Shown: in pieces, positions 36,956 to 52,088 of the stretch
Layout of the letters: every line of letters starts with the position of its first letter
How positions within the stretch are numbered: position 1 is the stretch's first letter
Assembly: GCA_038210455.1 (NCBI GenBank)
Contig: JBBQWP010000019.1
Location: 40,622 to 104,621, forward strand
Length of the DNA stretch: 64,000 nucleotides
Direction of reading: 5' to 3'
Source of the DNA: Pyrinomonadales bacterium
Lineage (GTDB): Bacteria > Acidobacteriota > Blastocatellia > Pyrinomonadales > Pyrinomonadaceae
Position numbers and translations under genes: made by a program
The notes under the pieces: model-generated
Database searches by the model: none
The model's input: the letters and a program-made list of their open reading frames with translations, nothing else
Told to the model about the DNA's origin: nothing

Positions 36956-38860
36956 TCATACCACCGTAATGCGTGCGCGAAACGTTGGCGATCCCTTCAG
37001 AGCAAACCACGATACTCCTTCCTGAAGCAGATCGATTTCGAGGAAGTACTCGCCGGGCTGGGCAGGAGCGTTGACGACGAAAGAGAGTGTGGTCTCTTGA
37101 CCGGGAGAAAGATCGGCGGCCAGAGGAGTGCGGCCTTCTTCTTTCGACGCGACTTGTCCGCTCGCGTTCAGCCAATGGCTGCCCATATTAATCTGAAACT
37201 TTCCGGCGCTCCGCTCACATCCGGGCCACACGGTGTCGCCGCGGTTCTTGATCAGCACGCTCAACTTTAGCGTCGCGCCTTTCGGCACGGTTGCGGGAAT
37301 TTCGGGGACTCTGATTTCAGCCCGGAACGCGCTGTCGGGTATTGGCGCGCGAGATCTGGGATGAGCGTCCGCGATGTACAGCGTGTATGGATCGGTTTGC
37401 GCCAGAACTTGCCGGTGAGCACAACTCTCTTCGGTCGAGATGACCAGCGCGTTTGCCGGCGGCGACTCTTCCGGGGCTAGACGGACAAAGTCGCTTAGCG
37501 GAATGCCTTTCAGGGTTGCGTACCAGTAAGCCTGAATGTAAGGCGTAGTCATCGCATCGGCGAGATAGATTGGCCGGGCGCCGTTCGCAACAGCGTTATC
37601 AAAAATCTTCTGCGGATAATCAGCGTCGAAAAGATGTCTCCTCCAGGGCGAGCCTGCCGCTTTGTGATACTGCCACTGAAAGAACGCGCCCTGGGCCAAG
37701 GTCAGAAATACCAGGAGCATTAGCGCTAAACGAATTTCACGCCGGCGGTCGCCTGCTTCGCACAGCCACGCGAACGCGGGTACGGCCAGCACCAGCAGAA
37801 AGACAGGTAACGCGGCCAGACGCAGCATGTGAAAATAGTCGGCAGTGAGAGAGGCCGGCACAATCGCAGCCACCAGCCCGTAGAGAATGAAACGCCACCA
37901 GGCGCTGTCTCGATGATGGCGCAGGACGAGGAACGCGCCCGTCAAAACCAGCAGCATCGTAACTGCGAGCAAGGCGGGTGTGCCGGGAACATGCGCGACC
38001 TGGTAGATGTTAGGATCGCCGCTTATCAGTAGTTTTACAGGATTAAGGTTGGCGGAATAGTGTTTGATAAAGTCCCCGGCGATCTCGGCAACGGAGCTCT
38101 CGGGCGTGATGTAACTGATCAGCTTGAATCGACCGGTGAGCGCGTCGGCGTGCCGGCGTTGAAAAAAAATCATTGGCAGCAGCGTCAGAGTGTATATTGC
38201 CCAGGTTCGCAGGATCGCGGACCAGCGGGCGCGGGTCGCGAAAACCAGGAGACCCAGGGTCAGCAACGGCGCCAGCAAACGACCGATCGAATAGGTGTAG
38301 GTCAACAGCGCCAAGGTCGACGTCAGGCAACCGACATCGAGCCAGCCCCACCTCGCTTTCGTCGAGGCACGCTGTACGGCCAGGAGAAACAGTGTCACCG
38401 CCAACGGATAGAGAGCGACTTCGAAAGCGACACGGCTCAGCTCAAACAACCAGGGCGTTAATAACGCCGACACGGCGACGAGCAAGCCCACATCACGCCG
38501 ATGCGAGATGCGCGAAGCCAGCAGACCCAGCAGTAATGCGCTGCCGATGCAGGCGATCGCGCCCAACATCCGCGCGGTTAAAATACTGGGTCCGGTTAGC
38601 TTGAACAGCGCCGCCAGCAGGTAGACATGAACCGGATTTTTATAATCGCCAAACGCACGGAAAAAGAGCGGCCATGAATTGCCGAACTCATCCTGACCAT
38701 TCTGTGAGATGGTATAGGCGTTGTACGCGACCGATGATTCGTCGATGAAGAAGCCGGCCGGGTTGCGCGTCACACGATAGCTGTAAAGCGTCGCGCCAAG
38801 AACCAGCACGATGGCGAACAACAACGGAAAGCGATAGCGCGCTCTCTCTTGTCTCGTCAT
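36956..38860 (-). CDS. GT-C fold membrane glycosyltransferase (ArnT/PMT family 39-like) with C-terminal beta-sandwich module
   Basis: 634 aa and polytopic. An acidic motif in the first extracytoplasmic loop (FFIDESSVAYNAY) is followed by many TM helices. The last 115 aa (36959-37303) are module copy 1. Confidence 0.7.
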   Translation of the reverse strand: MTRQERARYRFPLLFAIVLVLGATLYSYRVTRNPAGFFIDESSVAYNAYTISQNGQDEFGNSWPLFFRAFGDYKNPVHVYLLAALFKLTGPSILTARMLGAIACIGSALLLGLLASRISHRRDVGLLVAVSALLTPWLFELSRVAFEVALYPLAVTLFLLAVQRASTKARWGWLDVGCLTSTLALLTYTYSIGRLLAPLLTLGLLVFATRARWSAILRTWAIYTLTLLPMIFFQRRHADALTGRFKLISYITPESSVAEIAGDFIKHYSANLNPVKLLISGDPNIYQVAHVPGTPALLAVTMLLVLTGAFLVLRHHRDSAWWRFILYGLVAAIVPASLTADYFHMLRLAALPVFLLVLAVPAFAWLCEAGDRRREIRLALMLLVFLTLAQGAFFQWQYHKAAGSPWRRHLFDADYPQKIFDNAVANGARPIYLADAMTTPYIQAYWYATLKGIPLSDFVRLAPEESPPANALVISTEESCAHRQVLAQTDPYTLYIADAHPRSRAPIPDSAFRAEIRVPEIPATVPKGATLKLSVLIKNRGDTVWPGCERSAGKFQINMGSHWLNASGQVASKEEGRTPLAADLSPGQETTLSFVVNAPAQPGEYFLEIDLLQEGVSWFALKGSPTFRARITVV

Positions 38861-38968
38861 CTTGGAATCTGGTGCCTCCGGCGTTTTATCTTTCGTCAGT
38901 CCAACTCGGAACCGATACTAACAGCGCGGCGCGTAGTAGCATAGACTTCAGTCTGTGAATTTCACCGA

Positions 38969-40417
38969 ATGATGCGAGCAGATAAAGAAAAGGCCGGAGG
39001 TGGATCTTCAGATAGTGTCGCGGGCGTCCCGCCTGTGAATCACGCGCAAGATGCGCGTGCCACCTCCATCACTCGCGTTGAAGTCGTGCTCTTCCTTTTC
39101 CTATGGCTCGGTTACGGAGCGGCGATCAACTCCGACAACCTGGTCAACTTCAACTTGCAGCAGATCGGCGTCGAAGCGATCGTCGAACGCCATCAGTTCT
39201 ATCTGGAAGGCTCATCTGCTCCCGAATTGTTTCCTCAAGGCGATGTGTTCTTGTATCAGGGTCATAAGTACGCGGCCAAGCAGCCCGGTCAGTCAATGGT
39301 GGGCGCGGTAGTGTATTGGGTTCTGCGCGCCCTCGGTTTGCGATACGCGGACAATTACCTGCTGACTTCCGCGCTGGTCACTTTCTTTACTACTTCGCTC
39401 GTTCTGGCGGCGTCCGCGGTTGCGGTCTTCGGGATTTCTCGAAAACTTACAGCAGACGCGCAGGCGCTCTGCTGGCCAATACTGACGACGTTCGCCTACG
39501 CCCTCGCGACAACTGTCTTTGCCTACTCAGGGATCGCACACCACGATGCGCTCGCGACCGGCTATCTCGCGATCGCGTTCTATCTGATTTTCGATCTACC
39601 CCGCGCCGGTTGGGACGGGCGTGCGGAGATTTTCAAGTCAGCAGCCGCCGGGTTGCTGCTCGGTCTCGCTATGACGACATCGATGCTCGTCTTCTTTATG
39701 GTGATTGTCTGCGCGCTTTACTTCCTTTGGCTGTGGCGCTGGAGGTTAATCCCATTCTTTCTGGTAGCAATCCTACTTGGCTTGCTGCCTCTCTTTATCT
39801 ACAACGCGCAAAGTTTTGGCAGCCCATTCCTGCTGCCGAATGTAGTCGGCGCACAGATGTTCTCTGACACTTTCTTTCACTTCAGCGCGAGGAATTTCGG
39901 CAATAAGCTGGTCTGGTACTCGACTATGTTGGTCGTTTATGTGCCGATCGTTCTGGCCGGATTATTTGGCTTGTCGTATTACCCGCTGGCAGTGAAGCGC
40001 ACGCCGTTTTTTCTCGCACTGGTGGCGATGTTGGTCGTGCTGGCGGCCTACATCCTGAACATCAAAACCGGAGGAGATTGTCAATTCGGGCCGCGCTACC
40101 TGCTGCCGGCAATGCCTTTTGCCTGTCTGGGGATCGCCGGTTACAGCTATCTCTCGACTAACGTCGAGCGGCGGGTGGCGGGTGTGATCGTTTTGGTGTC
40201 AGGTGTGGTTTCGTTTGCGATAAACCTGGTGGGTGCCCTGTCTGGTGCGATGTGTTGTCCCGACGGAAGTAATGCATTGCGCAATCAGTTGACGCGACTC
40301 GCGGGAGGCGACGTGCCTCACTTTCCACTGGCGCCGTGGCTGATCGCCCCGCTCTTAATCTGTGCAGCGTTGTTTGTCTGGACCGGCGGCAAAATGAGGT
40401 CAGTACCACCCGCGTGA
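38969..40417 (+). CDS. Polytopic membrane protein, GT-C-like (tentative)
   Basis: 482 aa with at least 10 predicted TM helices. The early loop YQGHKYAAKQPGQSMVGAVVY resembles the PMT_2-type loop. The last codons lie inside repeat 40398-40489. Confidence 0.55.
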   Translation: MMRADKEKAGGGSSDSVAGVPPVNHAQDARATSITRVEVVLFLFLWLGYGAAINSDNLVNFNLQQIGVEAIVERHQFYLEGSSAPELFPQGDVFLYQGHKYAAKQPGQSMVGAVVYWVLRALGLRYADNYLLTSALVTFFTTSLVLAASAVAVFGISRKLTADAQALCWPILTTFAYALATTVFAYSGIAHHDALATGYLAIAFYLIFDLPRAGWDGRAEIFKSAAAGLLLGLAMTTSMLVFFMVIVCALYFLWLWRWRLIPFFLVAILLGLLPLFIYNAQSFGSPFLLPNVVGAQMFSDTFFHFSARNFGNKLVWYSTMLVVYVPIVLAGLFGLSYYPLAVKRTPFFLALVAMLVVLAAYILNIKTGGDCQFGPRYLLPAMPFACLGIAGYSYLSTNVERRVAGVIVLVSGVVSFAINLVGALSGAMCCPDGSNALRNQLTRLAGGDVPHFPLAPWLIAPLLICAALFVWTGGKMRSVPPA

Positions 40418-40489: not shown

Positions 40490-40534
40490 GCACTCCTTAG
40501 CCGCAGTGCTTCGGCAGACGAACAACGCGCGCCT

Positions 40535-42328
40535 TCATTTAACGCGATAGAGATAGATCGAATTACCGAAGACGGCTTCGGGCTGAAGTGTGCGGTACGC
40601 CGCGAGAAAATTCACGCGTTGCTCCTCTGACAGTTGGTGTCCATTCTCATCCGCAGAAACAGCGATGACCGAGCCGTTAAGAAAACTCGCGCCGATGGCG
40701 ACGTAATGTGTCTCGGGTATCGTGACGCCGGGCTTTGGAAACATCTCATGATAAGCGATGCCGTATTGGGCCAGCGTGCCCCAGCCACCAGCTACCGCTC
40801 CGACCACGTCGTTCTCTCCGCGCGCGTGAAGGTAAACGGCGAGGTCGCGGGCGTCGTCACCCCATTCCACGTTGGAATCAGATAGGTACCACCAATGCGG
40901 GTGCGCCGAGGCGAGTTGATTCATGTAGGGAATGTAATCCGGATAGGCTCGCAAAGCTTCGGCTGACATCCAACCGAAGGTGACCACGATGAGCGCTATG
41001 GCCAGGTGACGCGGATATTGAACGCGACCCAGGCGCTCGAGCAGCGCGCCCCCGGCGATAAAGAGAAACGGGTAGACCGGCAGAAAATGCCTGATGCCGA
41101 TATTAATGTGGCTGGTCATTGAGATGGCTGCATAGATGACCATCGGAATCACCAACCAGAGAATACGTTTGTCCTTTTTCCGAGTTAATCTCCAGAGGAT
41201 CCAGGCCAGCGCTGCCAGCGTGATGATCAGAAATGGCAGTGATGTCTTCAGGACAAACGCAACGGGGAAGTAATACCACCATCCCAGGAAACTGTATTGG
41301 CCGAGCAGAGACGCTGAGTGTCCGTCACGGTTGTGCAGCCAGACATTGTACTGGCCAAAGAGATAGTAGGTCGGCACAACCTTTGAGCCCGCCTGAAAGA
41401 AAAGCATCCACTGATCAAACGCCTCGGGCGATCTGGTCTGCACCCACTGCACATCCCCCGGTACCAGCGGCGGGCTCTGAAAACGATAAGCCGCATTGAC
41501 CATCAACCACACGAGACACAGAACGAGGCCCGAGTGCAGCAGGACCCGCCGGCGGCTTTCATTAAAGCGCGACGCGAATCCGAATCCCATCAGCGCCACG
41601 CACGCCAGCACTGGCAGAAGCACAACCATCGAGAACTTTGTCAGCAGAGCCAGTCCGCTCACCAGGCCGAGCACGAGCGCGTTCGAGGTCGTTCGGCTTT
41701 GCAAATACTTTCGCAGCGCGAAGAAGAAAAGCAGAAAGGCGAGGGCGGCGGGAAGATCCGTATGCACAATGTGCGCGTGTGCGAGCACTGTTGGTTCCAG
41801 AGTGTAAAGCGCAACCGCAAATAGGGCCGTGCGAACCCCGAAGAGGCTGCGTGCGTAAGCGAAGATCAGAACACCCAGACCGCAAGCCAGCATGATCATC
41901 ATTGCCCGCGTCCAGAATTGAATAGTTTCGGCCCGAGCCCTGTTGTTGGCCCAGAAACGCTGGTCATAGCTCCACCCCAACTCGAGAAAATTTCCCTGCT
42001 GCTCAGCGGCCGTCGGCGGCGCCTCGTTCGGCTGAATCAAAAGGAGTGGCAGCGCGGCCCACATTTTTACCAGCGGGGGATGTTCGTTGTTGAGTTGGAA
42101 TTCGCCGTTGACGAGGTGATAGTATCCAGCGGGAATGTGGACTATTTCGTCGTTGGTGATGTTCTTGCGCGCGATGATGGCGAACATCTGAAGACTCATG
42201 CCCAGCAGCAACGCCGCGCACAGCACTTCAGCCCGACGCGCCCACGCCCACCGCAGCGCTTGCGCCAGTGTTCGTCGCGGCTCGAAGACAAAACTAGTCG
42301 CGAACTCCTGATTCAATGATTCGTCCAT
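40535..42328 (-). CDS. GT-C fold glycosyltransferase, family 39 / PMT_2-like (phospholipid-carrier-dependent)
   Basis: ITNDEIVHIPAGYYHLVNGEFQLNNEHPPLVKMWAALPLL is the characteristic first-loop signature (DE..H...G.........HPPL.K). 597 aa, polytopic. Confidence 0.78.
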   Translation of the reverse strand: MDESLNQEFATSFVFEPRRTLAQALRWAWARRAEVLCAALLLGMSLQMFAIIARKNITNDEIVHIPAGYYHLVNGEFQLNNEHPPLVKMWAALPLLLIQPNEAPPTAAEQQGNFLELGWSYDQRFWANNRARAETIQFWTRAMMIMLACGLGVLIFAYARSLFGVRTALFAVALYTLEPTVLAHAHIVHTDLPAALAFLLFFFALRKYLQSRTTSNALVLGLVSGLALLTKFSMVVLLPVLACVALMGFGFASRFNESRRRVLLHSGLVLCLVWLMVNAAYRFQSPPLVPGDVQWVQTRSPEAFDQWMLFFQAGSKVVPTYYLFGQYNVWLHNRDGHSASLLGQYSFLGWWYYFPVAFVLKTSLPFLIITLAALAWILWRLTRKKDKRILWLVIPMVIYAAISMTSHINIGIRHFLPVYPFLFIAGGALLERLGRVQYPRHLAIALIVVTFGWMSAEALRAYPDYIPYMNQLASAHPHWWYLSDSNVEWGDDARDLAVYLHARGENDVVGAVAGGWGTLAQYGIAYHEMFPKPGVTIPETHYVAIGASFLNGSVIAVSADENGHQLSEEQRVNFLAAYRTLQPEAVFGNSIYLYRVK

Positions 42329-45294
42329 TCAACGCTCGCCGGAGGATAAAAACTGATCACGTCGCCGCGTTCGCGGTTACGGTCGCGCCGATCTTCTATT
42401 TCTTGCCGGCGCTGCTAAATCACCTGGTCCTGGGTCCCGATGACGGGATGCTTTTCAACGTTCCGTTGCGCGTCGCTGCGGCCCAGATCGTTCGGTCGGG
42501 ACATCTGCCGCTCTGGAACCCTTACATTTTCGGCGGCATGCCGATGCTGGCCGCGGCCCAGGGCGGATTGCTGTTTCCGCTGAACTGGTTCTACCTCGGG
42601 TTCTCTCCGGCCGTGGCCACAGACCTGATGGTCATATCGGCGTACATGTTGGCGGCGTCCGGCGCTTACCTCTACGCGCGCCGCACGGGCACATCGATAG
42701 CCGGCGCGATCGCGACGAGCCTGATCTGGCAGGCGGGCGGCTTTCTTATCGGCCAGATTAGCCACATCAACATAGTTCACACAGCCGCGTTGTTGCCATG
42801 GGTGCTTTGGGCCGTGGAGAGATATGTCAGCAACGGCAGGCGCGCGCGCGGTGCTTTGTTGGCCGCGCTCGTAGCTCTCCAGGCTTTTGCCGGTCATCAA
42901 CAGACGCTCTTCTATTCGCTCATGCTGGTGGCGTCGTATGCGATCGTAATGGCGCTCGCTGATTTGAAAAAGCGCAAACGCTATCTGTCGTCGCTCGCGT
43001 TTACCGCGGCCGGTGTGCTGCTGGCCGCGGTGCAGATCGTACCGACGTTCGAGTTGCTGCGCAACAGCCCGCGGGCCGTGGCCACTTATGACTTCTTCTC
43101 ATCGTTCTCGATGCCGGGGAGTTTTGTGGCCACTTTCATTGCGCCGTATGTAATGGGCGGAGGCGATGGACGCCTGTTCCGCGCTCCTTACATTGGTCAG
43201 TTGTACTACACCGAGTACGTCGCCTATGCCGGCGTGTTGGCGATCATGCTGGCGCTCCTGGCGTTGCTGCTCAAGCCCGACACGCGCACAAAATTCTGGG
43301 CGGTGGCGGGACTCTGTTGTCTGGTGCTGGCGTTCGGCCGCGGCGCGCCGCTGTATCTCTACCGGCTGATTTACTACGTGCCGATTCTCAACCTCTTTCG
43401 CGTTCCCGCGCGCCACTTGATGGAGGTCACGTTTGCCATCGCGGTACTCGCTGGTCGCGGGCTGACCTCGCTCACGGCGATGCGGGAAAGCAAGACGGCA
43501 AGGCGACGAGTGTTAATCGTGGCAGCTTCGGTCTTTCTGCTGACGCTGCTGATCGTGACCTGTTGGCGGCCGGCGAGTTTTCATCTGGGTCGAGAAGCGC
43601 CGGTCAGCTTATTGCGCGCTCCTGAATTATTCATGCCCATCCTGTTTGCCGCGTTGAGTGCATGGGCTCTCTGGGTATTCACGCGACAAAGGCGCGGCAG
43701 CACCGCCTTGCTACTCGCAATTCTGGCAATCGACCTGATGATGTGGGGACAGTCGACCGGCTGGTATACATCGAGCGGCAGAATCCCAAAAGAATTCTGG
43801 GGCGTGCCTGAGACCGTCGCACTTCTGCGCGAGAAGGCGCCAGGTGATGCGGCGAGCTATCGAATTCTCACTGCGAGAGCAACATTTGATCCGGCACAGA
43901 CTGTTACAGGTTCACCGGACTGGGTGCTTTGGATCGAGCCCGATGTTTACATGATGTATGGCATTCAAAACGCCGCCGGTTACGATGGCTTTGGACTTGA
44001 TCGCTACAGCCAACTGGCCGGGCAAATGAAATTATGGGGCGAGTTAACTGATCCCAATGCCACGTTGCGCAGCAACAGCCGGGAAATCGATTTATTGAAT
44101 GCGCGGTATCTGCTCTCGATCCGAAAACGAGCTGATGCTGTGCAAGCAGATTCGACGGCTGATGAGCTCAACTCCGCGCCGGCCTTTCCGCAGGCAACTC
44201 AGAATTTTGGTGGCTTCATGTTTGGTCCGAGCGATCTGAACCTGCCGAATCTTGGGTCGAACAAGCGGCTGACGTTCGCGATTCCACCGGTGCCGGCTGA
44301 TCGTATTGCGCTCGTAACCAACCTGTCCTGGGCCGAGGATGTTCCCAACCACACGACGATTGGTCGTCTGCGTCTGAAGGCAAGAGATGGGCGGGTCATC
44401 GAATTCCCGTTGATCGCCGGCGCGGACACCGCCGACTGGGCCTATGATCGACCGGACATTCGCGCTCGCATTAAACATCAGCGGGCTACGGTCGCGGCGA
44501 GCTATGACGTCAGCGACGCTCAACACAAATATCAGGGCCACACCTACGTTGCTGCCTTCGGCCTGCCTGAAAAGACGGTGATAGAGAGTGGTGAGATCGA
44601 GCTTGAGCCACAGACTCGCTCGCCGAACTTACTCCTGACTGTCTTTCGCGTATCATTCATTGATGCTAGCCAGGGAAAGTCATACCCGCTCAGTCGCGAT
44701 TTAATTAGAGTGGAAAGTACGACGTCAGAGACGGAACCGTTGCGCGAAGGGAAGGATGATCGCTGGACGCTCCTGGGCCAGACGCGCTATACGAATGTTT
44801 ATCAGAATGCGCGGGCCTTGCCGCGTGCGTGGCTGGCGCCTGAGACCCGCGTGCTCGACGACGGCGCGATGCTTCAGGTGATTCGAACGGGGCTTCTGCC
44901 CGACGGATCAAAGTGGGATCCGCTGCACACCGCTTTGATCGAAGCTGCGCCGGAGAATCCTTTGTCGACGGCCGCGCCGGATGGGCACGCGGAAATCACC
45001 GCGTACGAACCCAACCGAGTAAGCTTGGTGACGCACTCGAGTGGCAATTCAATTCTGGTGCTGAGCGAGAATGATTATCCCGGCTGGCGTGCATACATCG
45101 ATGGCCAATCTGCCGAAGTGTTGCGCGTCAACTTTGCTTTGCGCGGAGTTCAAATCCCAGGCGGCGATCATCAAGTTAGTTTTGTTTACCGTCCGTGGTC
45201 GGTGATGAGTGGGCTGTTGCTGTCGCTGCTGACGGGAGCGGGTTTGATAGTCTTGAGCCGGCGGAAGGTTAGGTCAACGACGGTAATTTCATAG
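42316..45294 (+). CDS. YfhO-family membrane glycosyltransferase-like protein
   Basis: GHLPLWNPYIFGGMPMLAAAQGGLLFPLNWFY near the N-terminus and ENDYPGWRAYIDGQSAEVLRVNFALRGVQIPGGDHQVSFVYRP near the C-terminus are both YfhO hallmarks. 992 aa. Confidence 0.8.
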   Translation: MIRPFNARRRIKTDHVAAFAVTVAPIFYFLPALLNHLVLGPDDGMLFNVPLRVAAAQIVRSGHLPLWNPYIFGGMPMLAAAQGGLLFPLNWFYLGFSPAVATDLMVISAYMLAASGAYLYARRTGTSIAGAIATSLIWQAGGFLIGQISHINIVHTAALLPWVLWAVERYVSNGRRARGALLAALVALQAFAGHQQTLFYSLMLVASYAIVMALADLKKRKRYLSSLAFTAAGVLLAAVQIVPTFELLRNSPRAVATYDFFSSFSMPGSFVATFIAPYVMGGGDGRLFRAPYIGQLYYTEYVAYAGVLAIMLALLALLLKPDTRTKFWAVAGLCCLVLAFGRGAPLYLYRLIYYVPILNLFRVPARHLMEVTFAIAVLAGRGLTSLTAMRESKTARRRVLIVAASVFLLTLLIVTCWRPASFHLGREAPVSLLRAPELFMPILFAALSAWALWVFTRQRRGSTALLLAILAIDLMMWGQSTGWYTSSGRIPKEFWGVPETVALLREKAPGDAASYRILTARATFDPAQTVTGSPDWVLWIEPDVYMMYGIQNAAGYDGFGLDRYSQLAGQMKLWGELTDPNATLRSNSREIDLLNARYLLSIRKRADAVQADSTADELNSAPAFPQATQNFGGFMFGPSDLNLPNLGSNKRLTFAIPPVPADRIALVTNLSWAEDVPNHTTIGRLRLKARDGRVIEFPLIAGADTADWAYDRPDIRARIKHQRATVAASYDVSDAQHKYQGHTYVAAFGLPEKTVIESGEIELEPQTRSPNLLLTVFRVSFIDASQGKSYPLSRDLIRVESTTSETEPLREGKDDRWTLLGQTRYTNVYQNARALPRAWLAPETRVLDDGAMLQVIRTGLLPDGSKWDPLHTALIEAAPENPLSTAAPDGHAEITAYEPNRVSLVTHSSGNSILVLSENDYPGWRAYIDGQSAEVLRVNFALRGVQIPGGDHQVSFVYRPWSVMSGLLLSLLTGAGLIVLSRRKVRSTTVIS

Positions 45295-45349: not shown

Positions 45350-45495
45350 TTTAGCCCGGCGTTTCAACGCCGGGAAATAGTCGGGTGACGTTCGTTCGTC
45401 GCATAGCGACGTTTGAACTCACATCTTTCAGACGTCGCTACGCGACGTGCACGTTCTTGCTGAACTCATCCCCGGCGTTGAAACGCCGGGCTAAA
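45350..45495. repeat. Nested palindromic MITE-like element (TIR TTTAGCCCGGCGTTTCAACGCCGGG)
   Basis: tttagcccggcgtttcaacgccggg ... ccccggcgttgaaacgccgggctaaa form the outer TIRs. The inner pair is cgtcgcatagcgacgtttgaa / ttcagacgtcgctacgcgacg. Confidence 0.7.
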
Positions 45496-45525
45496 CTCAG
45501 GTCGGCGCTACGCGCCGAAAAATCT

Positions 45526-46308
45526 ATGGGCCCGGCCGAAGAAACCCACTCAATCGCGATGGCTAAACCCCGTCACGTCGAAAGCCCGGCGGACTGCTTT
45601 TTCTATCACACGATGGATCTGCCCGGCCTGGGTGAGGTGAAAGGTCATTGGGACCTGCGCGGCAGGTTCAATGAATACATTGGCGGCGTAAGTCTCGCCG
45701 GTAAGTCAGTGATCGACATCGGGGCCGCGACCGGCTTCCTCAGTTTCGAAGCTGAGAAGAGCGGCGCGACGCGAGTGCTCTCTTTTGATATAGACGACCC
45801 GCGGCAACAAGCGTTTCTTCCATTCAAAGACAAACTCTACTCCTGCGATCCCGCGCGCTGGGCGGAAGAGTACGGCGCGGAAATCGAACAATGGAAGAAT
45901 GCTTACTGGCTCTGTCACCGGCTGCTTGATTCACAGGCGGAGGTTTACTATGGCGACATCTATGAACTGCCTCGGGAACTGGGCCAGTTCGATGTCGCGA
46001 TCGTGGGTTCGGTGCTGGAGCACTTGAGCGATCAAATCTCGGCGCTGGCTTCGATCGCGCGGTTGACGAAAGAAACGATCATCATTGTCTCGCCCATGCT
46101 CGACACAGCCGAAAGAATCGCGAAGTTCGGAGCCCTCGCCGATCATCCCGAGAACGATTTCACGTGGTGGATTTATTCGGAAGGTGTTTACCGCGAGGTT
46201 TTGAAAATGCTTGGCTTCAGCATCACCAGCATCACCCAGGCTGAGTACTACTATCATCACGGTGAGCGCTTCGAGACGCGACATACGATCGTCGGCGTGC
46301 GGGGTTGA
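45526..46308 (+). CDS. Class I SAM-dependent methyltransferase
   Basis: Motif I KSVIDIGAATGFLSFEAEKSGA and FDVAIVGSVLEHL. The start is trimmed from 45385 because that extension is encoded by the repeat element. Confidence 0.8.
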   Translation: MGPAEETHSIAMAKPRHVESPADCFFYHTMDLPGLGEVKGHWDLRGRFNEYIGGVSLAGKSVIDIGAATGFLSFEAEKSGATRVLSFDIDDPRQQAFLPFKDKLYSCDPARWAEEYGAEIEQWKNAYWLCHRLLDSQAEVYYGDIYELPRELGQFDVAIVGSVLEHLSDQISALASIARLTKETIIIVSPMLDTAERIAKFGALADHPENDFTWWIYSEGVYREVLKMLGFSITSITQAEYYYHHGERFETRHTIVGVRG

Positions 46309-46421: not shown

Positions 46422-46445
46422 TCGTTACGCGCGTCACTCGGCCTC

Positions 46446-49070
46446 TCACACACCCAGCTTCTCAACCACTTCAAACACGATCGCCAACGGTTCCGATCCC
46501 ACTTCTTCGAACCAACAGACATGCTGGTCAACCAGATCGAATTTCAGGGTGTAGCGTCCAGGCCGTCGCGGCGCAGCATGTTCGATCTTCAACGAGACAG
46601 TTTCGCCGGGGGCGACCGCGCGGGGCAGCGGAGGCTCGCCGTGAAACTCGCTGATCAGCGTGCCCGCTTCATCGATGATGCGCACCCCGGGCATCACTGT
46701 GCCCGGGCGGGTTTCACTACCGGCAAGCCAAAGCGTATCGCCCGTGTTTTCGATTTCGAGCTCAATGTCCAATGCCTCTCCGGGTGCTAGCCGTTCCACT
46801 CCGCGCTCAATCAATGCGATCCGGGCACGCAACAATCCGGGGTGCCGGCTATCTGGCACCGTCGAGGCGGCCGCGCCATCGACGACCTTCTTGCAAGCCA
46901 GATAATGATAATTCCGCGGCACGTTCTTTAGCGGCAGCAGATCATCCGCGATAGTTTCCCGGTCAAACAATCCGTTCACGCTGGCGTAATCTCCGATCAC
47001 GGCGAGGCCGTGCTCATCGAGGAGTTGCCGCAGATGCCCATAATCGAACGGTGATTCAAGCGTGCCGTATTCCGTCATCACGCCGAACAGTTCCGCTTCG
47101 GTGGCGGAGCCGGCGGGCGGGCGCTCGCCTTCAAGGATAAACAGCACGCCGCCGACCGGAAGCATAGCGGCGAGGTGACGCATCACCGCAGTTTCGTCCT
47201 CGAAGTGATGGAGCGAGTCATAGCAGAGAACTGCATCAAACTTTTCTGCCAGCGGCGAGCCCTCGATGTCGTGTACCTCGAAAGAGCAGCGCAGCTCGGT
47301 CTCGTGATCGACATCAAAAGGGACGCGGGCCACGCGATCGCGCGACATCTCGATCAGATCCGGGCTGATGTCGATCCCCTTCACGACGTAACCGAGACGC
47401 GCGAAATACTCGCTCATCCATCCCGACCCGCAACCCACATCCAAAATCCGGCTGCCCGCCGGCAAACCGAGCGTGACCGCGATGTTGGCAAAGTCGCAAA
47501 AGTGTCGGTGCGTTTCGGCGTCCATGCCGTCGCCCTGATGCTTGTCCGGCTTGTTCGCGAGATTGTAGAACGGCTTGGTCCTTAAGTAATGACTGCGCTC
47601 TGCATCGAGCCGCCCCGGGTATTCAACTGCCGCCCGCTTGTAATCAACGCCCTCAGGTTTCGCCATCCGCCCGACGCTGAACTGAGGCTGTCGAGATGCC
47701 TTGCCGTTAGTCGACGTGCTCTCGGATTTTCCGTTGCCGCTGAATGAAGAGTCACCTTCGCGGCGAGTGAGGTCCGCGGGGATCAGATTCGCAACCTCTT
47801 CCGCCACGCCGCGCATGACCAACTCGTCGGCAGACTTAATCCCGAGCACCGAAAGCTCCTGCGAAACGCCGGCGATGAGCTTACGCCGCGGCCGCTGATC
47901 GATCACTGTGCCGATGAAGTTCAGATAGTCGGCGGCCCGACCGGCTACGTCATATTCGTCAAGCGCATAACGCCGAGCGTTCGCGCCGATAGTGGCCCGC
48001 AGCGGTTCATCTTCAATCAGTCGCTCGAGGTAAGCGAGCAGCAACTTATCAGCCTGAGCGTCGAGCGGAATTTTGACGACCGCATCATTCGGCAGTTCGG
48101 CATACCAACCCGCCTCAGCAACGACGCTGCATACTCCCGCGGCCATCAGCCGGCAGAGACTCGCGCTGGTCTCTCCGACAGTTCGTTCGCGTATGTTCAG
48201 AGCAATGTCGGTTTCATCAATCCGCCGCTTGAACTCTGGCAGAGTTACATGGCCGGTGATCTCGACCCAGTCCTCCATGCCGTAGCGACGAATAAGATTG
48301 CGCACATCGAAGTAATGGTTTGTTTCACCAACCAGTGAGTAGCGAAAGCGACCGGTCTGTTTGAGCGCGGCCAGCGCGCGCATGCTCTGCTCGATCCCTT
48401 TGCCGGGGGTGATTAGACCGAAGCTGGCGATCTTCACTACTTCAGAGGAGCGGGCAGGTCGCGGTCCACTATCGGAGAACTCTACCGGCATGGCGATGCG
48501 CGCCACCGGAACGGTCGGAGCAATCACGCCAAAACGCGCGCGGCTCCACTCTGAATGAACGATGATGCCTTCCGCCGAGTTCGCGATTCGGCAGTTCAAG
48601 GGAAAATCAATCGGCCGGGCCAGCATCGATGGCAGCGCGCCTCTCGTCAAAGTTTCCTCCGCCTCTGCTCGGGCGGCCCGGCCGTGGCAGAGCTCAATTT
48701 CCTCGAGATAGAGCCGCAGGTCGTCGCGTTCGCGCGCGAGCCCGAGGAAAAATTCCTGAAGCGCAAAGTCATGGAAGACGACAATACCTGGGCGATGTTG
48801 CATGGCTTCCAGGATGCCGGCGTGGTAACGGTGGTCGTTTCCGATGTGGTAAACGACCGCATCGAACCGTTCGAGCTGGCGCAGGGTTGAGCGTTGCCGG
48901 CGATAATCGCAGACCTCGAAACGCGAGGTCAGGTCGCGGTTCAAAGGGTGAAAGCCGTCAACGAAGAGCGTGATCTCTGCCGCCTCACCCAGATGTGGCA
49001 GCAGTTCTTCGCTGTAATCGCTGATCCCTGAACGCTGCGGACCGAGCGGGCTGAAGTAAGCGAGTTTCAT
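46446..49070 (-). CDS. Tri-domain fusion: GT4 glycosyltransferase + class I SAM methyltransferase + C-terminal beta-sandwich module
   Basis: The N-terminal ~400 aa are GT4-like (MKLAYFSPLGPQRSGISDYSEELL...). The middle domain has ILDVGCGSGWMSEYFARLGYVVKGIDIS. The last 116 aa (46449-46796) are module copy 2. Confidence 0.8.
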   Translation of the reverse strand: MKLAYFSPLGPQRSGISDYSEELLPHLGEAAEITLFVDGFHPLNRDLTSRFEVCDYRRQRSTLRQLERFDAVVYHIGNDHRYHAGILEAMQHRPGIVVFHDFALQEFFLGLARERDDLRLYLEEIELCHGRAARAEAEETLTRGALPSMLARPIDFPLNCRIANSAEGIIVHSEWSRARFGVIAPTVPVARIAMPVEFSDSGPRPARSSEVVKIASFGLITPGKGIEQSMRALAALKQTGRFRYSLVGETNHYFDVRNLIRRYGMEDWVEITGHVTLPEFKRRIDETDIALNIRERTVGETSASLCRLMAAGVCSVVAEAGWYAELPNDAVVKIPLDAQADKLLLAYLERLIEDEPLRATIGANARRYALDEYDVAGRAADYLNFIGTVIDQRPRRKLIAGVSQELSVLGIKSADELVMRGVAEEVANLIPADLTRREGDSSFSGNGKSESTSTNGKASRQPQFSVGRMAKPEGVDYKRAAVEYPGRLDAERSHYLRTKPFYNLANKPDKHQGDGMDAETHRHFCDFANIAVTLGLPAGSRILDVGCGSGWMSEYFARLGYVVKGIDISPDLIEMSRDRVARVPFDVDHETELRCSFEVHDIEGSPLAEKFDAVLCYDSLHHFEDETAVMRHLAAMLPVGGVLFILEGERPPAGSATEAELFGVMTEYGTLESPFDYGHLRQLLDEHGLAVIGDYASVNGLFDRETIADDLLPLKNVPRNYHYLACKKVVDGAAASTVPDSRHPGLLRARIALIERGVERLAPGEALDIELEIENTGDTLWLAGSETRPGTVMPGVRIIDEAGTLISEFHGEPPLPRAVAPGETVSLKIEHAAPRRPGRYTLKFDLVDQHVCWFEEVGSEPLAIVFEVVEKLGV

Positions 49071-49175
49071 ATCAAAAGGTGGCAGTCAGAGACCTGTCGC
49101 AAAAGCAAATCATCGGTGCCAGAACAGACTAATCTCTGACTGCTGAGGCCCGGCTTCTGATCTCTGATCTCGCTC

Positions 49176-49718
49176 TTATTTCACTACCGTGATCTTTGCC
49201 TTCGTGGTGGGCGAACCTTTTTCGCCGAACCACGCAACGCCTTCCTGCACCATATCCAAACTGAGAATGTATTCGCCGGGTTTCTTTGGGGCAGTGATTT
49301 GAAGAGTCGTTTCAGTTTCTTCGCCCGGGTTGAGGTCTTTGGTCATGCCGTTGTGCCCTTCCGCTTCTGACGTAGGCTTTCCGTCTTTATCGAGCCAGCG
49401 ACTGCCGACGGCTATGTAGAACTTGTTATCCGGCCGATTGTTTGTCTCGCCACCGAGCCGCCGCCAAATAACGTCGCTCGTGTTTTTGACTTTTAGGGTT
49501 ATGACCTCTTTCTGTCCGGCGCGCAGCTTTGAGGGTGGATCGGGCACAGTGATCTGCGCCTTGAAACCGCGTTCGACCAGCGGGCCCGCTGCGTTTGAAA
49601 TCGCGGTGGCCCTCTCAGCCGGCGAGGCGGTGTTGGCCGTCTGCTTCGGACTGCAACCCATTGCTAATGTCACAAATCCGATAACACTCGCAAGCAAAAC
49701 AAATCTCAACTTCATCAT
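49176..49718 (-). CDS. Lipoprotein consisting essentially of one copy of the beta-sandwich module
   Basis: Signal peptide with lipobox LAMGC and a short linker. Bases 49179-49538 encode module copy 3 (KNTSDVIW...GSRWL...DLNPGEE...APKKPGEYILSLDMVQEGVAWFGEKGS). Confidence 0.75.
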   Translation of the reverse strand: MMKLRFVLLASVIGFVTLAMGCSPKQTANTASPAERATAISNAAGPLVERGFKAQITVPDPPSKLRAGQKEVITLKVKNTSDVIWRRLGGETNNRPDNKFYIAVGSRWLDKDGKPTSEAEGHNGMTKDLNPGEETETTLQITAPKKPGEYILSLDMVQEGVAWFGEKGSPTTKAKITVVK

Positions 49719-49817
49719 CAGTGATTCCTCCCTATTCTTCTATCGGTAGCCAGACCTTAGTCTGTGATTAATTTTCAGAGCGAGCTCGCATCTCAAATTG
49801 AAGTCCCGGCCCCATAA

Positions 49818-52088
49818 TCACGGCTGCACGAGCACGCGAAGTTGCAATGGGTGGGCGCCTCTTTCCTTAAACCAGGTCACTCCCTCGTGCACCATGTCAA
49901 TCTCGAGAAGGTACTCGCCAGGTATTCGCGGCGCGTTTACGGTTAACGTTATCTCGACCTCGCCAGCCGGCGGTAAATCTGCTTTCATAGCGGCGCGATT
50001 ATCCTCTGCAGTCACGCCGCCGAGAAACCAGCGATTACCCAGGTTAACCTGGTACCTGAAGTCCTTGGTGCCGACAGCCGGCCAGGTTTCATCACCGAGA
50101 TTCTTGACCTTGAATCGAAGATCCGCCTTTTCGCCGGGATGCATCACCGACGGCGGATCAAGCGCTACGATTTGTTCGCGATAGACTGTAGCCGCGAAAG
50201 CTCCCTTCATCCAGGCCGACTCAAACTGGCTGCGGGCCTCTGCTGCCTGCGGGATCCGAATCTCAATGAGCATCATACCGATCCGGTCGCGTGGTGAAAA
50301 GAAGGGAAGATCCACGGGCGTTATGGTCCCGACTTCCAGCCCTCTTAGCGCGATCGCCTGCTTTGCGGCAGTTAGGTCATTCTTGAGGCAAAGCGAAAAC
50401 ATCTGACTTCCGGGCGAACTTTCGACGGCGCTAATAAACTTTCGCAATGCGTCGCGGGTGGAAAAATATTCCGGCTGGCGCACGGCGATGATCGGCGCGC
50501 GAGGGTTTAGCAACACCTCAAAACCCGTGGACTTGGGACCAGTCTCACACCACACCTGGACGCCGTCAAAAAGCGGGCGCTCTTCGTCACTCAGAAAGTT
50601 TCTAAGGGATCGGTCGCGTAATATGAGGCGCGCCTCTTGCATGTAAATGTCGGGCGCATCGATCACGGAACTGCGCGCACCCCACTCTTTCTGCCGCACA
50701 TAAAAGCAGGCAAAAAGCGCTTGCATCACCAGCGCGAGGCAGAGGATCAAGGCTGTTCCAGTCCGCCACGAAATCGTCGACCATGACCCGCTCCCGATCA
50801 CCGCCACGACGGCGAAAACCGTTACGCCCGCCAGCAGATCCTGATAAAGGCCATAGCGGCTGTAGCCCAGCGCAGTCACGCTCCAAAGCAGCGAACTCGA
50901 GATCAGAATGAGGCATAAAGTGCGCGCGCGCGGGTTGCGCCAAACGAGCACCAGCCCGGCTATCGCGACCACGAAGCCGAGCGACAGGCGGCCTGAATAA
51001 ACACCTAACTCTGAGAGGCGCTCCGGCTTAAACCAGATCAGCACGGGCCAAACCATCGTCTCCCAAAAACCGTGCGGTCCCCAGCGATTGTCCCAGCCAC
51101 CGTTCGTCGGCCAGTACGGCGACTTGAAGAGAACATTCGCGACCGGAAAGGTCGGATTGCCTGTCAGGCGGAAGATGTAGATCGTGAACGGCAGAAGTGG
51201 CGCCAGAAAGCCGGCGAGCATCAGCGATCCGGTCGTCATCATTTGCTTTGGCGTGAACCGGCATGAACCCACAGCCACCCTGTACGCGCAGACCGCAAGA
51301 ATGGGCAGCGCAACCGCGAGGTTTGTGAACTTGAACGCCGCTGCGGCTCCGAGCAGCAACGCTACGTGTACAAAATTTGCATGCCGGTTCTCGGCTTCGT
51401 CAGCGCGCAACGTAAGCAGTGTGGCCTGGAGCAAGAGCGGCAGCGTAAGCAGATCAACCATGTAGGTGCTGATCTCGAAGAGTAGATTCTCGGACAGTAC
51501 GATCAGAAGCAAGCACGCTGAACGCACCCAGGCGCGATCGAGGAATGGTCGCAGGAGCTTGTCGGTGATTTGCCCCGCCCAGACCAACGCCAGGAGGTTG
51601 ATGACAGTGCCGAGCCTGTATCCCAGAAGCAACCTGCTAATGCCGGTCAGCGTGTCAGCAGCCGGATTGAACGGTGTCGACGTAGGAAAGAAGTCGCCAG
51701 GTTCAAAGAGAGTGCCGCGCAGGGTACGCTCGGCGTGGAGCAAGTGATAGCTGAGCACGTCGAACGATCGATCCGGAAACGCGGCGCGCAGCAGATAAGC
51801 CAAAAGCAAAGGCAGCCCAACCAGCAGCCAGAAACTACGGCCAAACTTTTCCGCGCGAAATTGTTTTGTCCAAATGTAGAGGTACCAGAAAGCGATGGCG
51901 GGCGGCACGCCGAGGGCCCAGGCGAGAACATTATTGTTGACAACCCAGAGGTACTGGCGGACGAAGACGAGGGCGTAGAGAAAGAGGAGCACGTCGCCGA
52001 ATTCGACGGACGTGCGTAACCCTGCGGAGGGCTTCGTATTTTCCAAGCCTTGCTGTTCCGCCGGCGCTGTCATCGCGGTATTCAGCAC
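49818..52088 (-). CDS. Polytopic membrane protein (GT-C-like or polymerase-like, unassigned) with C-terminal beta-sandwich module
   Basis: 756 aa. About 14 hydrophobic helices, then a soluble region. The last 112 aa (49821-50156) are module copy 4. The start overlaps the stop of the upstream GT2 gene by 7 nt. Confidence 0.7.
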   Translation of the reverse strand: MLNTAMTAPAEQQGLENTKPSAGLRTSVEFGDVLLFLYALVFVRQYLWVVNNNVLAWALGVPPAIAFWYLYIWTKQFRAEKFGRSFWLLVGLPLLLAYLLRAAFPDRSFDVLSYHLLHAERTLRGTLFEPGDFFPTSTPFNPAADTLTGISRLLLGYRLGTVINLLALVWAGQITDKLLRPFLDRAWVRSACLLLIVLSENLLFEISTYMVDLLTLPLLLQATLLTLRADEAENRHANFVHVALLLGAAAAFKFTNLAVALPILAVCAYRVAVGSCRFTPKQMMTTGSLMLAGFLAPLLPFTIYIFRLTGNPTFPVANVLFKSPYWPTNGGWDNRWGPHGFWETMVWPVLIWFKPERLSELGVYSGRLSLGFVVAIAGLVLVWRNPRARTLCLILISSSLLWSVTALGYSRYGLYQDLLAGVTVFAVVAVIGSGSWSTISWRTGTALILCLALVMQALFACFYVRQKEWGARSSVIDAPDIYMQEARLILRDRSLRNFLSDEERPLFDGVQVWCETGPKSTGFEVLLNPRAPIIAVRQPEYFSTRDALRKFISAVESSPGSQMFSLCLKNDLTAAKQAIALRGLEVGTITPVDLPFFSPRDRIGMMLIEIRIPQAAEARSQFESAWMKGAFAATVYREQIVALDPPSVMHPGEKADLRFKVKNLGDETWPAVGTKDFRYQVNLGNRWFLGGVTAEDNRAAMKADLPPAGEVEITLTVNAPRIPGEYLLEIDMVHEGVTWFKERGAHPLQLRVLVQP

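Follow-up and report, generated by a model that had tools for sequence, protein, structure and literature searches.

An FW-like Ig-like module recurs on unrelated enzymes and on a lipoprotein in a glycan-assembly supercluster of Pyrinomonadaceae

The window analysed here is a stretch of 64,000 nt from a Pyrinomonadales bacterium (assembly GCA_038210455.1, contig JBBQWP010000019.1, positions 40,622-104,621, forward strand). The host is a soil acidobacterium (Acidobacteriota, Blastocatellia, Pyrinomonadales, Pyrinomonadaceae). Four minus-strand genes in the window end in a module of ~120-130 residues, termed FW-like below, and these genes sit in a glycan-assembly supercluster that is conserved in Pyrinomonadaceae. 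Besides six GT-C-like membrane glycosyltransferases, this supercluster encodes GT4 enzymes and a polyprenyl-phosphate-hexose synthase, together with several methyltransferases, a coiled-coil protein and a Wzt ABC ATPase that carries a carbohydrate-binding domain. The features are listed in window coordinates, and module boundaries are HMM envelopes.

36956..38860, minus strand: 634-aa polytopic membrane protein, probable PMT/GT39-GT83-like GT-C (GT-C634)
36959..37327, minus strand: FW-like module of GT-C634, residues 512-634
38969..40417, plus strand: 482-aa polytopic putative glycosyltransferase, LA_3751/LA_3752-like
40535..42328, minus strand: 597-aa PMT_2-type GT-C
42316..45294, plus strand: 992-aa YfhO/PgfM2-like GT-C
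45385..46308, plus strand: 307-aa SAM methyltransferase
46446..49070, minus strand: 874-aa fusion of GT4, SAM methyltransferase and FW (GT4-MT)
46461..46832, minus strand: FW-like module of GT4-MT, residues 747-870, with a 4-aa tail that reaches 46449
49176..49718, minus strand: 180-aa lipoprotein, signal peptide with a ...LAMGC lipobox, linker and FW module
49179..49565, minus strand: FW-like module of the lipoprotein, residues 52-180
49818..52088, minus strand: 756-aa GT-C-fold membrane glycosyltransferase (GT-C756), in the order GT-C, periplasmic alpha/beta domain, FW
49821..50183, minus strand: FW-like module of GT-C756, residues 636-756
52082..53101, minus strand: GT2 polyprenyl-phosphate hexose synthase, AglJ / Dol-P-hexose / PpgS-like
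53424..56093, plus strand: 889-aa polytopic protein, kept in the conserved block
56247..57299, minus strand: 350-aa GT4 glycosyltransferase
57319..58692, minus strand: 457-aa SAM methyltransferase
58774..59724, minus strand: 316-aa coiled-coil protein
59727..61154, minus strand: Wzt-type ABC ATPase with a Wzt_C carbohydrate-binding domain

That the four C-terminal segments are homologous, as an earlier note on this DNA had claimed, is borne out. In a MAFFT alignment, the copies are 32-43% identical to the first sequence, and 20 columns are invariant. In phmmer searches of the entire window, translated in six frames, every module retrieved the other three and nothing else, at E 1e-10 to 1e-30 (1e-12 to 1e-30 for the module of GT-C634). 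The alignment and these all-versus-all matches therefore indicate homology and not a likeness of composition. No fifth copy was found in the 64-kb window with a profile of the four modules. The segments lie where the note had placed them, although the HMM envelopes extend slightly further towards the N-terminus. The shared motif it had proposed is only partly kept: GT4-MT has no tryptophan at 'G..W[LF]' and reads AVAPGE in place of DL.PGEE, and the GT-C756 copy carries the variant DLPPAGE. The GT4-MT module is the most divergent copy; its second tryptophan and some shared motifs are missing, and its identity to the periplasmic copies is no more than 25-32%. We conclude that all four derive from a bacterial FW-like Ig-like beta-sandwich and are paralogues that diverged long ago.

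The suggestion of a portable Ig-like sandwich of the NBR1 type is supported by Pfam, by a family profile and by fold comparison. PF16158 is the top Pfam match of all four copies, each of which scores just below the cut-off of 28 bits (19.8 for GT-C634, 27.1 for GT4-MT and 25.1 for GT-C756). A broad family profile matches solved FW domains by sequence (4OLE, E 2.4e-7; 6VHI, E 4.5e-6). The AlphaFold model of the lipoprotein module has a pLDDT of ~97 over the domain, and its top fold match in the PDB is the FW domain of human NBR1 (4OLE). Further fold matches include a porphyran-binding CBM, CARDB, accessory sandwiches of glycoside hydrolases and Wzt carbohydrate-binding domains; the likeness to CBMs and Wzt domains is at the level of a generic beta-sandwich (TM-score ~0.5-0.6), and a Pfam search matched the module to none of the curated CBM families. 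The closest known domain is N_BRCA1_IG (PF16158) of human NBR1 (4OLE), ILRUN (6VHI) and Chaetomium Nbr1 (7VQO). The window copies differ from it in falling below the Pfam gathering cut-off and in retaining two of the four signature tryptophans; an invariant Asp occupies the position of the fourth, and the family has an invariant motif of its own, 'WF...GS'. The module thus represents a diverged bacterial offshoot of the NBR1/ILRUN FW domain. Across all seven architecture classes, the invariant residues include N79, W85 and, on a single hairpin, the acidic D155 with the aromatic pair W163 and F164; Gly, Pro and core aromatics make up many of the conserved positions.

The FW domain itself is already known, as are bacterial FW domains near the C-terminus of highly diverse proteins (Marchbank 2012, PMC3357945). 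In the literature searched we found no description of FW on a GT-C, a GT4-methyltransferase or a lipoprotein of a glycan locus. The family is very large (12,401 clusters at 50% identity, E<=1e-3), its tandem arrays reach 14 copies, and its partner domains include peptidase S8, Amidase_2, F5/8 type C, PKD, CARDB and sulfatase. Its occurrence on peptidases, amidases, sulfatases and PKD/CARDB arrays therefore marks the fold as a generic accessory domain. The earlier note had weighed the possibility of a ubiquitous domain that is not enriched here; the first half is true of the family, but the enrichment is real, with four copies within 13.2 kb, none in the remaining ~51 kb, and an arrangement that recurs in many genomes.

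The module is carried by very different scaffolds. The label 'GT39-like' for GT-C634 is supported through its orthologues (7 of 13 match PMT_2 and 4 of 13 match PMT), although the window protein matches neither. Its hhalign link to the PMT_2 neighbour is weak; the 482-aa protein is linked to the same neighbour at an hhalign probability of 91.6%. From the positive-inside rule and hydropathy, GT-C634 is read as having ~11 TM segments with the N-terminus in and the C-terminus out, and an invariant D40-E41 lies in the first predicted periplasmic loop. For GT-C756, the AlphaFold model (pLDDT 80) points to a GT-C fold, with Foldseek matches to AglB, ArnT, Pmt4, PimE, PglB, ALG3 and AftA. The likely start of its ORF is the ATG at 52073, giving 751 aa, and its orthologues in Pyrinomonadaceae are 57-76% identical. 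Three TM helices are predicted to follow a cytoplasmic RNPRAR loop, and the soluble tail comes after the last of them. Directly upstream lies the GT2 hexose synthase, with two C-terminal TM segments, which is likely the donor-making partner of GT-C756. The cores of GT-C634 and GT-C756 share nothing detectable outside the module, in agreement with the claim of unrelated scaffolds, and judged by sequence the two enzymes appear only remotely related; despite this, their modules align at E 3e-23. The 889-aa protein, which a Pfam search assigned to no family, has a remote YfhO/PMT_2 link.

In GT4-MT, Pfam confirms a GT4 domain (residues ~1-390) and a class I SAM methyltransferase (~530-690), with further support from NCBIfam and from methyltransferase matches in the PDB. 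The lipoprotein assignment is confirmed by a lipobox-like motif in 104 of 114 full-length homologues, among which the +2 residue is never Asp. The family alignment shows 58-80% identity, the linker of ~30 aa is rich in A/P/T/S, and the gene holds a fixed position between two enzyme genes.

The predicted topology places the modules on two sides of the inner membrane. Sequence and hydropathy reveal no real TM segment and no signal peptide in GT4-MT; since its enzymes, moreover, use NDP-sugar and SAM, its module must be cytoplasmic. The GT-C and lipoprotein copies are predicted to be periplasmic. As the modules lie in two compartments, all four cannot meet, so that the physically coupled machine proposed earlier, a single complex held together by the modules, appears unlikely.

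Comparison with other genomes shows that these architectures are maintained. Both the triad of GT-C756+FW, lipoprotein+FW and GT4-MT+FW and the block of YfhO, PMT_2 and GT-C634+FW recur in dozens of genomes, and the gene block is kept across Pyrinomonadaceae and partly in Verrucomicrobiota. Modules group by architecture: members of one class share 50-60% identity, those of different classes 25-42%, and the fusions are therefore old and maintained. In other genomes, methyltransferases related to the 307-aa protein bear an FW module of their own (MT307+FW), and Chthoniobacterales have MT+FW without GT4. Methyltransferases with the module recur in Wzm/Wzt-type clusters of other phyla; a cyanobacterial cluster in Chlorogloeopsis, for example, has the order Wzm, Wzt (with Wzt_C), coiled-coil+MT, double GT4, MT+FW and FWx2. 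The cytoplasmic MT+FW modules of other phyla are 39-42% identical to the periplasmic GT-C and lipoprotein modules, as close as the periplasmic modules are to one another, which fits a ligand present on both sides of the membrane.

What could be the role of the module? Our best reading, which we hold tentatively, is recognition of a shared glycan acceptor. The module would be non-catalytic, would serve acceptor recognition or targeting, and would bind some feature of either the polymer or the lipid-linked precursor. In the cytoplasm, it would keep the GT4-methyltransferase on the growing chain, and likewise the plain methyltransferases of related genomes. After export, the periplasmic C-terminal modules would recruit the two unrelated GT-C enzymes to the same polymer, which these would tailor with polyprenyl-phosphate-linked sugars. 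The free lipoprotein could be a membrane-anchored polymer-binding protein for hand-over, envelope retention or regulation. Both the glycan nature of the ligand and the role of the lipoprotein are what we infer, and ligand specificity may differ between copies. Acceptor recognition by extra soluble domains is known for the GT-C enzymes EmbC, AftD, PglB and AglB. For bacterial FW domains, the literature searched yielded no binding results. The invariant D155, W163, F164, N79 and W85 and the recurrent fusion to glycan methyltransferases speak for this reading; the divergence of the GT4-MT copy, the range of partners in the wider family, the absence of a match among curated CBM families and the generic level of the fold likeness to CBMs and Wzt domains speak against it.

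It is also conceivable, though unlikely, that the module binds proteins as in eukaryotic NBR1. The two GT-Cs and the lipoprotein would then join mutually or through a common protein into a periplasmic tailoring complex, for which the lipoprotein may provide an outer-membrane anchor, and GT4-MT and the MT+FW of relatives would dock separately in the cytoplasm, for example on the coiled-coil protein or Wzt. All characterised FW domains are eukaryotic and have protein or peptide ligands (the Ams1 N-terminus, MAP1B, TAX1BP1), and bacterial XRE-FW regulators, whose C-terminal domain would typically mediate oligomerisation, suggest oligomerisation or small-ligand sensing; both points speak against a glycan ligand. 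The triad genes are tightly linked and co-directional, and the Pyrinomonadaceae modules split into a periplasmic group (lipoprotein, GT-C634 and GT-C756, 39-41% identity) and cytoplasmic groups (GT4-MT and MT307+FW, 27-31% identity to the periplasmic group); both observations favour a protein partner. However, two partner sets would be needed, one per compartment, and in other phyla the MT+FW modules, though cytoplasmic, cluster with the periplasmic class. Two unrelated GT-Cs and methyltransferases of at least three lineages carry the module, in phyla that share the pathway type and not the partners, and the Ams1-pocket residues of fungal Nbr1 are not conserved here, in addition to the loss of two signature tryptophans.

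The size of the family, its tandem arrays and many partner types, and the prevalence of Gly, Pro and core aromatics among conserved residues would suit a passive Ig-like appendage (spacer, folding or stability) with no shared ligand, spread by domain shuffling among envelope-related proteins. We consider this quite improbable: the conserved module-only lipoprotein has nothing to space, the enzymes carry a single copy at the extreme C-terminus with no stalk, and the charged D155 and the WF pair are invariant over all architecture classes. Least probable, and in our judgement very doubtful, is a protein O-glycosylation locus in which the FW lipoprotein is the glycoprotein substrate and the enzyme modules recognise or mimic it. 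PMT_2/PMT-like GT-Cs, a PgfM2-like protein and an AglJ-like GT2 would fit such a locus, as would the lipoprotein linker, since O-mannosylated actinobacterial lipoproteins have linkers that are likewise A/P/T/S-rich; but such tethers are widespread among lipoproteins, the presence of GT4s, of several methyltransferases and of a Wzt bearing a carbohydrate-binding domain suggests that a polymer is synthesised in the cytoplasm, and FW on cytoplasmic methyltransferases and in the cyanobacterial Wzm/Wzt cluster would be left unexplained.

Recognition of a shared glycan acceptor has analogues in known systems. In mycobacterial EmbC and AftD, whose modules have been demonstrated to bind glycan, a periplasmic beta-sandwich follows the last GT-C TM helix as in the GT-Cs of the window; they are a functional analogue of the proposed mechanism with no sequence relationship to the window modules, and we know of no such module on cytoplasmic enzymes of the same pathway. 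Shared CBMs or dockerins in polysaccharide-degrading loci and the cellulosome follow the same logic, in which a single non-catalytic module is reused on catalytic scaffolds that are unrelated but have a polymer in common. Those systems are degradative and extracellular, whereas the one described here serves biosynthesis and has members on either side of the inner membrane. Mycobacterial LpqW, a non-catalytic periplasmic lipoprotein that regulates GT-C-dependent PIM/LM/LAM synthesis, acts with GT-C mannosyltransferases and is a possible analogue of the free FW lipoprotein, although its substrate-binding-protein-like fold is unrelated. The C-terminal domain of Wzt (PF14524; 5HNO, 6O14, 8DKY), likewise a beta-sandwich, acts in the cytoplasm, where it recognises the (methyl-)capped terminus of a glycan that an ABC transporter exports. 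It is present in the same locus on Wzt and is a weak fold match to the FW module; it is nonetheless a different family, which the FW profile did not match in the window, and belongs to the exporter, whereas FW sits on tailoring enzymes. In contrast to the known function of FW, protein-cargo binding in eukaryotic autophagy, the window copies lie in a glycan locus. If the preferred reading is true, one small domain would direct enzymes on both sides of the membrane, together with a lipoprotein, to one polymer.

Four minus-strand genes of the window encode proteins that end in one and the same domain of ~120-130 aa (hereafter the FW module):

36956-38860, minus strand: 634-aa ORF (GT-C634), ending in the module (HMM envelope 36959-37327)
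46446-49070, minus strand: 874-aa ORF (GT4-MT, a GT4-methyltransferase fusion), ending in the module (HMM envelope 46461-46832)
49176-49718, minus strand: 180-aa ORF (putative lipoprotein), ending in the module (HMM envelope 49179-49565)
49818-52088, minus strand: 756-aa ORF (GT-C756), ending in the module (HMM envelope 49821-50183)

An identical 751-aa database protein indicates that the last of these ORFs probably starts at the ATG at 52073. Aligned to one another, the modules share 32-43% identity with the first sequence and have 20 invariant columns. When each module alone was compared by phmmer with the six-frame translation of the whole window, the only matches were the other three (E 1e-10 to 1e-30), and a profile built from the four found no fifth copy in the 64 kb. 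That the similarity reflects homology follows from these searches, and phmmer between single modules rules out a similarity of composition; alignment, phmmer and profile thus confirm that the four C-terminal segments are homologous, as the earlier note had claimed. All four segments are present where it had placed them, but the HMM envelopes begin slightly further upstream in each protein. Its consensus motif is only partly general: the 'G..W' tryptophan is missing from the GT4-MT copy, and two copies deviate from 'DL.PGEE'.

Judged by sequence, the module is a divergent branch of the FW (four-tryptophan) or N_BRCA1_IG family, PF16158. In all four proteins it is the sole Pfam family over the module, and in three it ranks first; in the GT4-MT fusion no other family spans the module region. 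The scores (19.8, 27.1, 26.2 and 25.1 bits; E 1e-3 to 6e-6) lie just below the Pfam gathering cut-off of 28 bits. The four-sequence profile found no solved relative in the PDB, only noise (designed Ig proteins, PI-PLC). It took a broader profile, built from 41 diverse members of the family, to match human NBR1 (4OLE, E 2.4e-7) and ILRUN (6VHI, 4.5e-6) by sequence, with Chaetomium Nbr1 (7VQO) at 5.5e-3. The AlphaFold model of the lipoprotein shows an eight-strand beta-sandwich (pLDDT ~97 over the domain) behind a disordered tether of ~45 residues. In a Foldseek search of the PDB with this model, ranks 1-3 were the three chains of 4OLE (E 3.6e-7, TM-score ~0.55 on the target), and further matches were the porphyran-binding CBM 8WAE, Spo0M, 6VHI (rank 7), CARDB, beta-sandwich accessory domains of glycoside hydrolases and several Wzt carbohydrate-binding domains. 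The module in the GT-C756 model superimposes on 6VHI with a TM-score of 0.67. The Ig fold suggested from sequence is thus borne out as a confident beta-sandwich nearest to FW structures. The guess of an 'NBR1-type or CARDB-like' domain was also a good one, as PF16158 is the best match by sequence, 4OLE is the best by fold and CARDB is among the fold matches. For CARDB itself (PF07705), Pfam gave no match at E<=1 in the four window proteins, and the CARDB-related fold match is 3IDU (E 8e-5). Pfam at E<=1 gave, as regards CBMs, only weak sub-threshold matches of the lipoprotein to NPCBM_assoc and LacZ_4, and NCBIfam models exist neither for the module nor for the lipoprotein nor for the two GT-Cs that carry FW.

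Alignment to 4OLE shows where the branch has diverged. The tryptophan after 'NxG' is present in all four copies and the 'GxxW' tryptophan in three of them, while the first signature tryptophan is replaced by an aliphatic residue and the fourth by an invariant aspartate (D155), so that two of the four name-giving tryptophans are retained. The module family has an invariant signature of its own, N...W...PG...AP..PG.Y.L..D.V.E.V.WF...GS, in which D155, W163 and F164 form an invariant acidic and aromatic cluster in one hairpin.

The proteins that carry the module are of different kinds. The 874-aa protein consists of a GT4 domain, a class I SAM methyltransferase and the FW module; it has neither a signal peptide nor a true TM segment, which argues that it must act in the cytoplasm. 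The AlphaFold model of the 756-aa protein (pLDDT 80) matches AglB, ArnT, Pmt4, PimE, PglB, ALG3 and AftA in Foldseek, and on these matches the protein is modelled as a GT-C fold with a periplasmic soluble domain. Its first long periplasmic loop contains invariant Asp residues, and the three TM helices that follow a cytoplasmic RNPRAR loop would place its alpha/beta domain and FW module in the periplasm; to our knowledge, the soluble domains of all characterised GT-Cs are periplasmic, as predicted here. The 634-aa protein itself has no PMT match and no Pfam family of its own, and among 13 orthologues PMT_2 is found in seven (best E 6.4e-7) and PMT in four. It has an invariant D40-E41 pair in the first predicted periplasmic loop, and we read it, following the positive-inside rule, as having ~11 TM segments with the N-terminus in and the C-terminus out. 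PDB searches with this protein and with the profile of its orthologues returned nothing or spurious TM matches to sodium channels. The 180-aa protein has a signal peptide ending in a lipobox cysteine (...TLAMGC|S), an A/P/T/S-rich tether and then the module, and is therefore predicted to be a bacterial lipoprotein; a lipobox-like motif is found in 104 of 114 full-length homologues, none of which has Asp at +2. Outside the module, nothing relates GT-C634 detectably to GT-C756 (BLASTP aligned the FW region only, E 3e-23; hhalign probability 0.6%). The idea of a portable module is supported.

The surrounding genes are those of a glycan locus. A GT2 resembling AglJ and Dol-P-hexose synthases adjoins GT-C756 directly upstream, and other neighbours are a GT4, two further methyltransferases and a coiled-coil protein. 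In the PDB, the methyltransferase part of the GT4-MT fusion and the 457-aa methyltransferase of the locus matched generic class I methyltransferases, which allows no WbdD-type assignment. A Wzt ABC ATPase with a Wzt_C carbohydrate-binding domain lies at 59727-61154. Neither the scanned ORFs of at least 150 aa nor phmmer with a cyanobacterial Wzm revealed a Wzm/ABC2_membrane permease in the window, and the fetched loci yielded none apart from a cyanobacterial one (L081). Directly upstream of Wzt, in the expected place of the Wzm gene, is a 910-aa protein (61204-63936, minus strand) with Calx-beta, CHRD and DUF4214 domains. Besides the two FW carriers there are four more polytopic GT-C-like proteins: PMT_2, YfhO/PgfM2-like, LA_3751-like and an 889-aa protein of no family. 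The ~19 kb at 36956-56093 thus hold six such proteins (634, 482, 597, 992, 756 and 889 aa) and are unusually rich in GT-Cs, which are only remotely related to one another (hhalign: PMT_2 and the 482-aa protein 91.6%, 889-aa protein and YfhO 78%, PMT_2 and 889-aa protein 61%). The 889-aa protein (53424-56093, plus strand), with ~9 TM segments and no Pfam or NCBIfam family, is encoded on the opposite strand and conserved in every locus that has block A (below), and may be a further enzyme of the GT-C-like kind, whose C-terminal ~350 aa would form a soluble domain. Bordering the locus, and convergent with the GT-C634 gene, is a PAS-GAF-HisKA-HATPase-REC hybrid histidine kinase (34179-36743, plus strand). 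A lysine/diaminopimelate set at 24093-32551 comprises aspartate kinase, a DapE-like M20 peptidase, DapB, DapA, a DapD-like succinyltransferase, an aminotransferase and aspartate-semialdehyde dehydrogenase. A promoter and terminator scan of 46.0-53.6 kb gave counts close to those of shuffled sequence and was uninformative on operon structure.

The lipoprotein and GT-C756 are well-conserved families of Blastocatellia/Pyrinomonadaceae. Four contigs reached through lipoprotein homologues share one gene order with the window: a coiled coil, a methyltransferase, a GT4 and a ~890-aa TM protein on the opposite strand, followed by GT2, GT-C+FW, lipoprotein+FW and GT4-MT+FW. Scanning species-representative genomes gave 573 relatives, of which we mapped the best 80 loci with our own profiles. 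Two blocks, usually adjacent, recur among these 80: block A (the 889-aa protein, GT2, GT-C756+FW, lipoprotein+FW, GT4-MT+FW) and block B (YfhO, PMT_2, in some cases GT2, GT-C634+FW, the 482-aa polytopic protein). Block A often includes an extra methyltransferase+FW that is absent from the window; in seven loci (L041, L047, L061, L066, L071, L082, L084) this is a ~380-aa protein whose catalytic part is closest to the window's 307-aa methyltransferase. The latter (45385-46308, plus strand) has no FW module, and the fusion in relatives is a fifth architecture of the module. On the contig of L003/L004 a CRISPR-Cas module (17091-20543; Cas1, Cas2, Cas6, RAMP) sits between blocks A and B, ~4 kb downstream of the GT4-MT-FW gene.

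More distant loci bear on the history of the fusions. Four loci of Chthoniobacterales (Verrucomicrobiota; L043, L053, L068, L074) have the order counterpart of the 457-aa methyltransferase, MT+FW, counterpart of the 307-aa methyltransferase, YfhO, GT-C634+FW. Their MT+FW protein (~430 aa) is the counterpart of residues 465-745 in the fusion of the window and has no GT4 domain, suggesting that GT4 was probably joined to an older MT+FW unit in Pyrinomonadaceae. The cyanobacterium Chlorogloeopsis fritschii PCC 6912 has Wzm, Wzt(Wzt_C), an acetyltransferase, coiled-coil+MT, a double GT4, MT+FW and a protein with two FW modules. This locus of a cultured strain (L081; NZ_CP170746.1, 3798479-3814844) is an O8/O9a-like ABC-dependent cluster, in which the acyltransferase is of the hexapeptide type, the coiled-coil+MT protein has a WbdD-like layout, the double-GT4 protein has 779 aa, and the FW proteins have 384 aa (MT+FW) and 393 aa (two modules). 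Module identity is 50-60% within an architecture class and 25-42% across classes, and a module's closest match almost always belongs to its own class. As the modules group by architecture across genomes, recent duplication or gene conversion within the locus is ruled out, and the fusions are old and maintained.

The wider family is large. The four-module profile reached 12,401 clusters (50% identity) at E<=1e-3 and 4,877 at E<=1e-10, and the best-scoring proteins have 2-14 tandem copies. Among the partner domains in a sample of 48 proteins were CARDB, Amidase_2, F5/8 type C, methyltransferases, PD40, peptidase S8, PKD, sulfatase and GSDH; CARDB accompanies the module in some relatives with tandem arrays. 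In a recurrent architecture of ~1,160 aa (family proteins P0223, P0227, P0228, P0230, P0236, P0251, P0254-P0256 and P0259), a signal peptide and four FW-like modules make up the N-terminal part, and behind them come a block of 4-6 TM segments and a large C-terminal region. Bacterial FW domains have been described in 'strikingly diverse' proteins, usually near the C-terminus and including XRE-FW regulators, with function unknown (PMC3357945, PMC9233695, PMC9582228). Our literature searches turned up no publication that deals with FW domains in glycan pathways of bacteria, and no functional work on bacterial FW domains. Many orthologues and family proteins are already annotated automatically with PF16158, and the domain family itself is known; the new elements are the divergent subfamily, the way in which a locus for glycan biosynthesis uses it systematically and in two compartments, and the stand-alone lipoprotein.

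What could one module do on such different proteins? From their domain content, we envisage a polymer whose synthesis and methylation would take place in the cytoplasm; an ABC transporter would then export it, and polyprenyl-phosphate sugars would serve to tailor it in the periplasm. In GT-C enzymes, acceptor recognition is the task of soluble appendages (the CBMs of EmbC and AftD, the periplasmic domains of PglB and AglB), and cytoplasmic beta-sandwiches such as Wzt_C recognise glycan termini. Since carriers that share a pathway would share a polymer, we tentatively favour the module as a CBM-like domain for acceptor targeting, a reading that we consider quite possible, short of probable, and in which the lipoprotein, too, would bind that polymer from its membrane tether; glycan binding as such is suggested by resemblance at the level of the fold (CBM 8WAE, Wzt carbohydrate-binding domains). 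Besides the glycan binding of GT-C appendages and Wzt_C, we favour it because of three observations: in Wzt-type clusters of three phyla, the module has been fused repeatedly and independently to glycan methyltransferases; the modules of cytoplasmic MT+FW proteins are as near to the periplasmic copies as these are to one another; and D155, W163 and F164 are invariant in one hairpin.

The main rival, that the module is instead a protein-protein domain, agrees with what every characterised FW domain does. As modules are predicted on both sides of the inner membrane, one complex held together by them is unlikely, and the 'physically coupled machine' of the earlier note is not supported as it was put; a protein-binding module would have to serve separate periplasmic and cytoplasmic assemblies, which we regard as unlikely. 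Less likely than this are a passive structural part, which seems improbable, and a lipoprotein that is itself a glycoprotein substrate, which seems very improbable. The acceptor-targeting role could be taken further: bacterial FW-like domains might form a so far unrecognised family of glycan-binding 'address' modules. Every enzyme that tailors a given exported polymer, in the cytoplasm or in the periplasm, would be marked by one, as would a lipoprotein receptor dedicated to that polymer, and the FW domain of eukaryotic autophagy receptors might descend from a bacterial module that binds envelope glycans. This wider proposal is doubtful.

The FW domain has thousands of members in bacteria and no established function, and the locus is a compact and conserved test case, with a small soluble lipoprotein that is close to the module alone and three enzymes in two compartments. 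If the module binds proteins, the NBR1-type mode of cargo recognition would extend to bacteria. If it binds the polymer, it would define a new CBM-like family and show how tailoring enzymes of a biosynthetic pathway are guided to a substrate across the membrane in Acidobacteria, a group in which envelope polymers have hardly been studied, and perhaps likewise in Verrucomicrobiota and Cyanobacteria.
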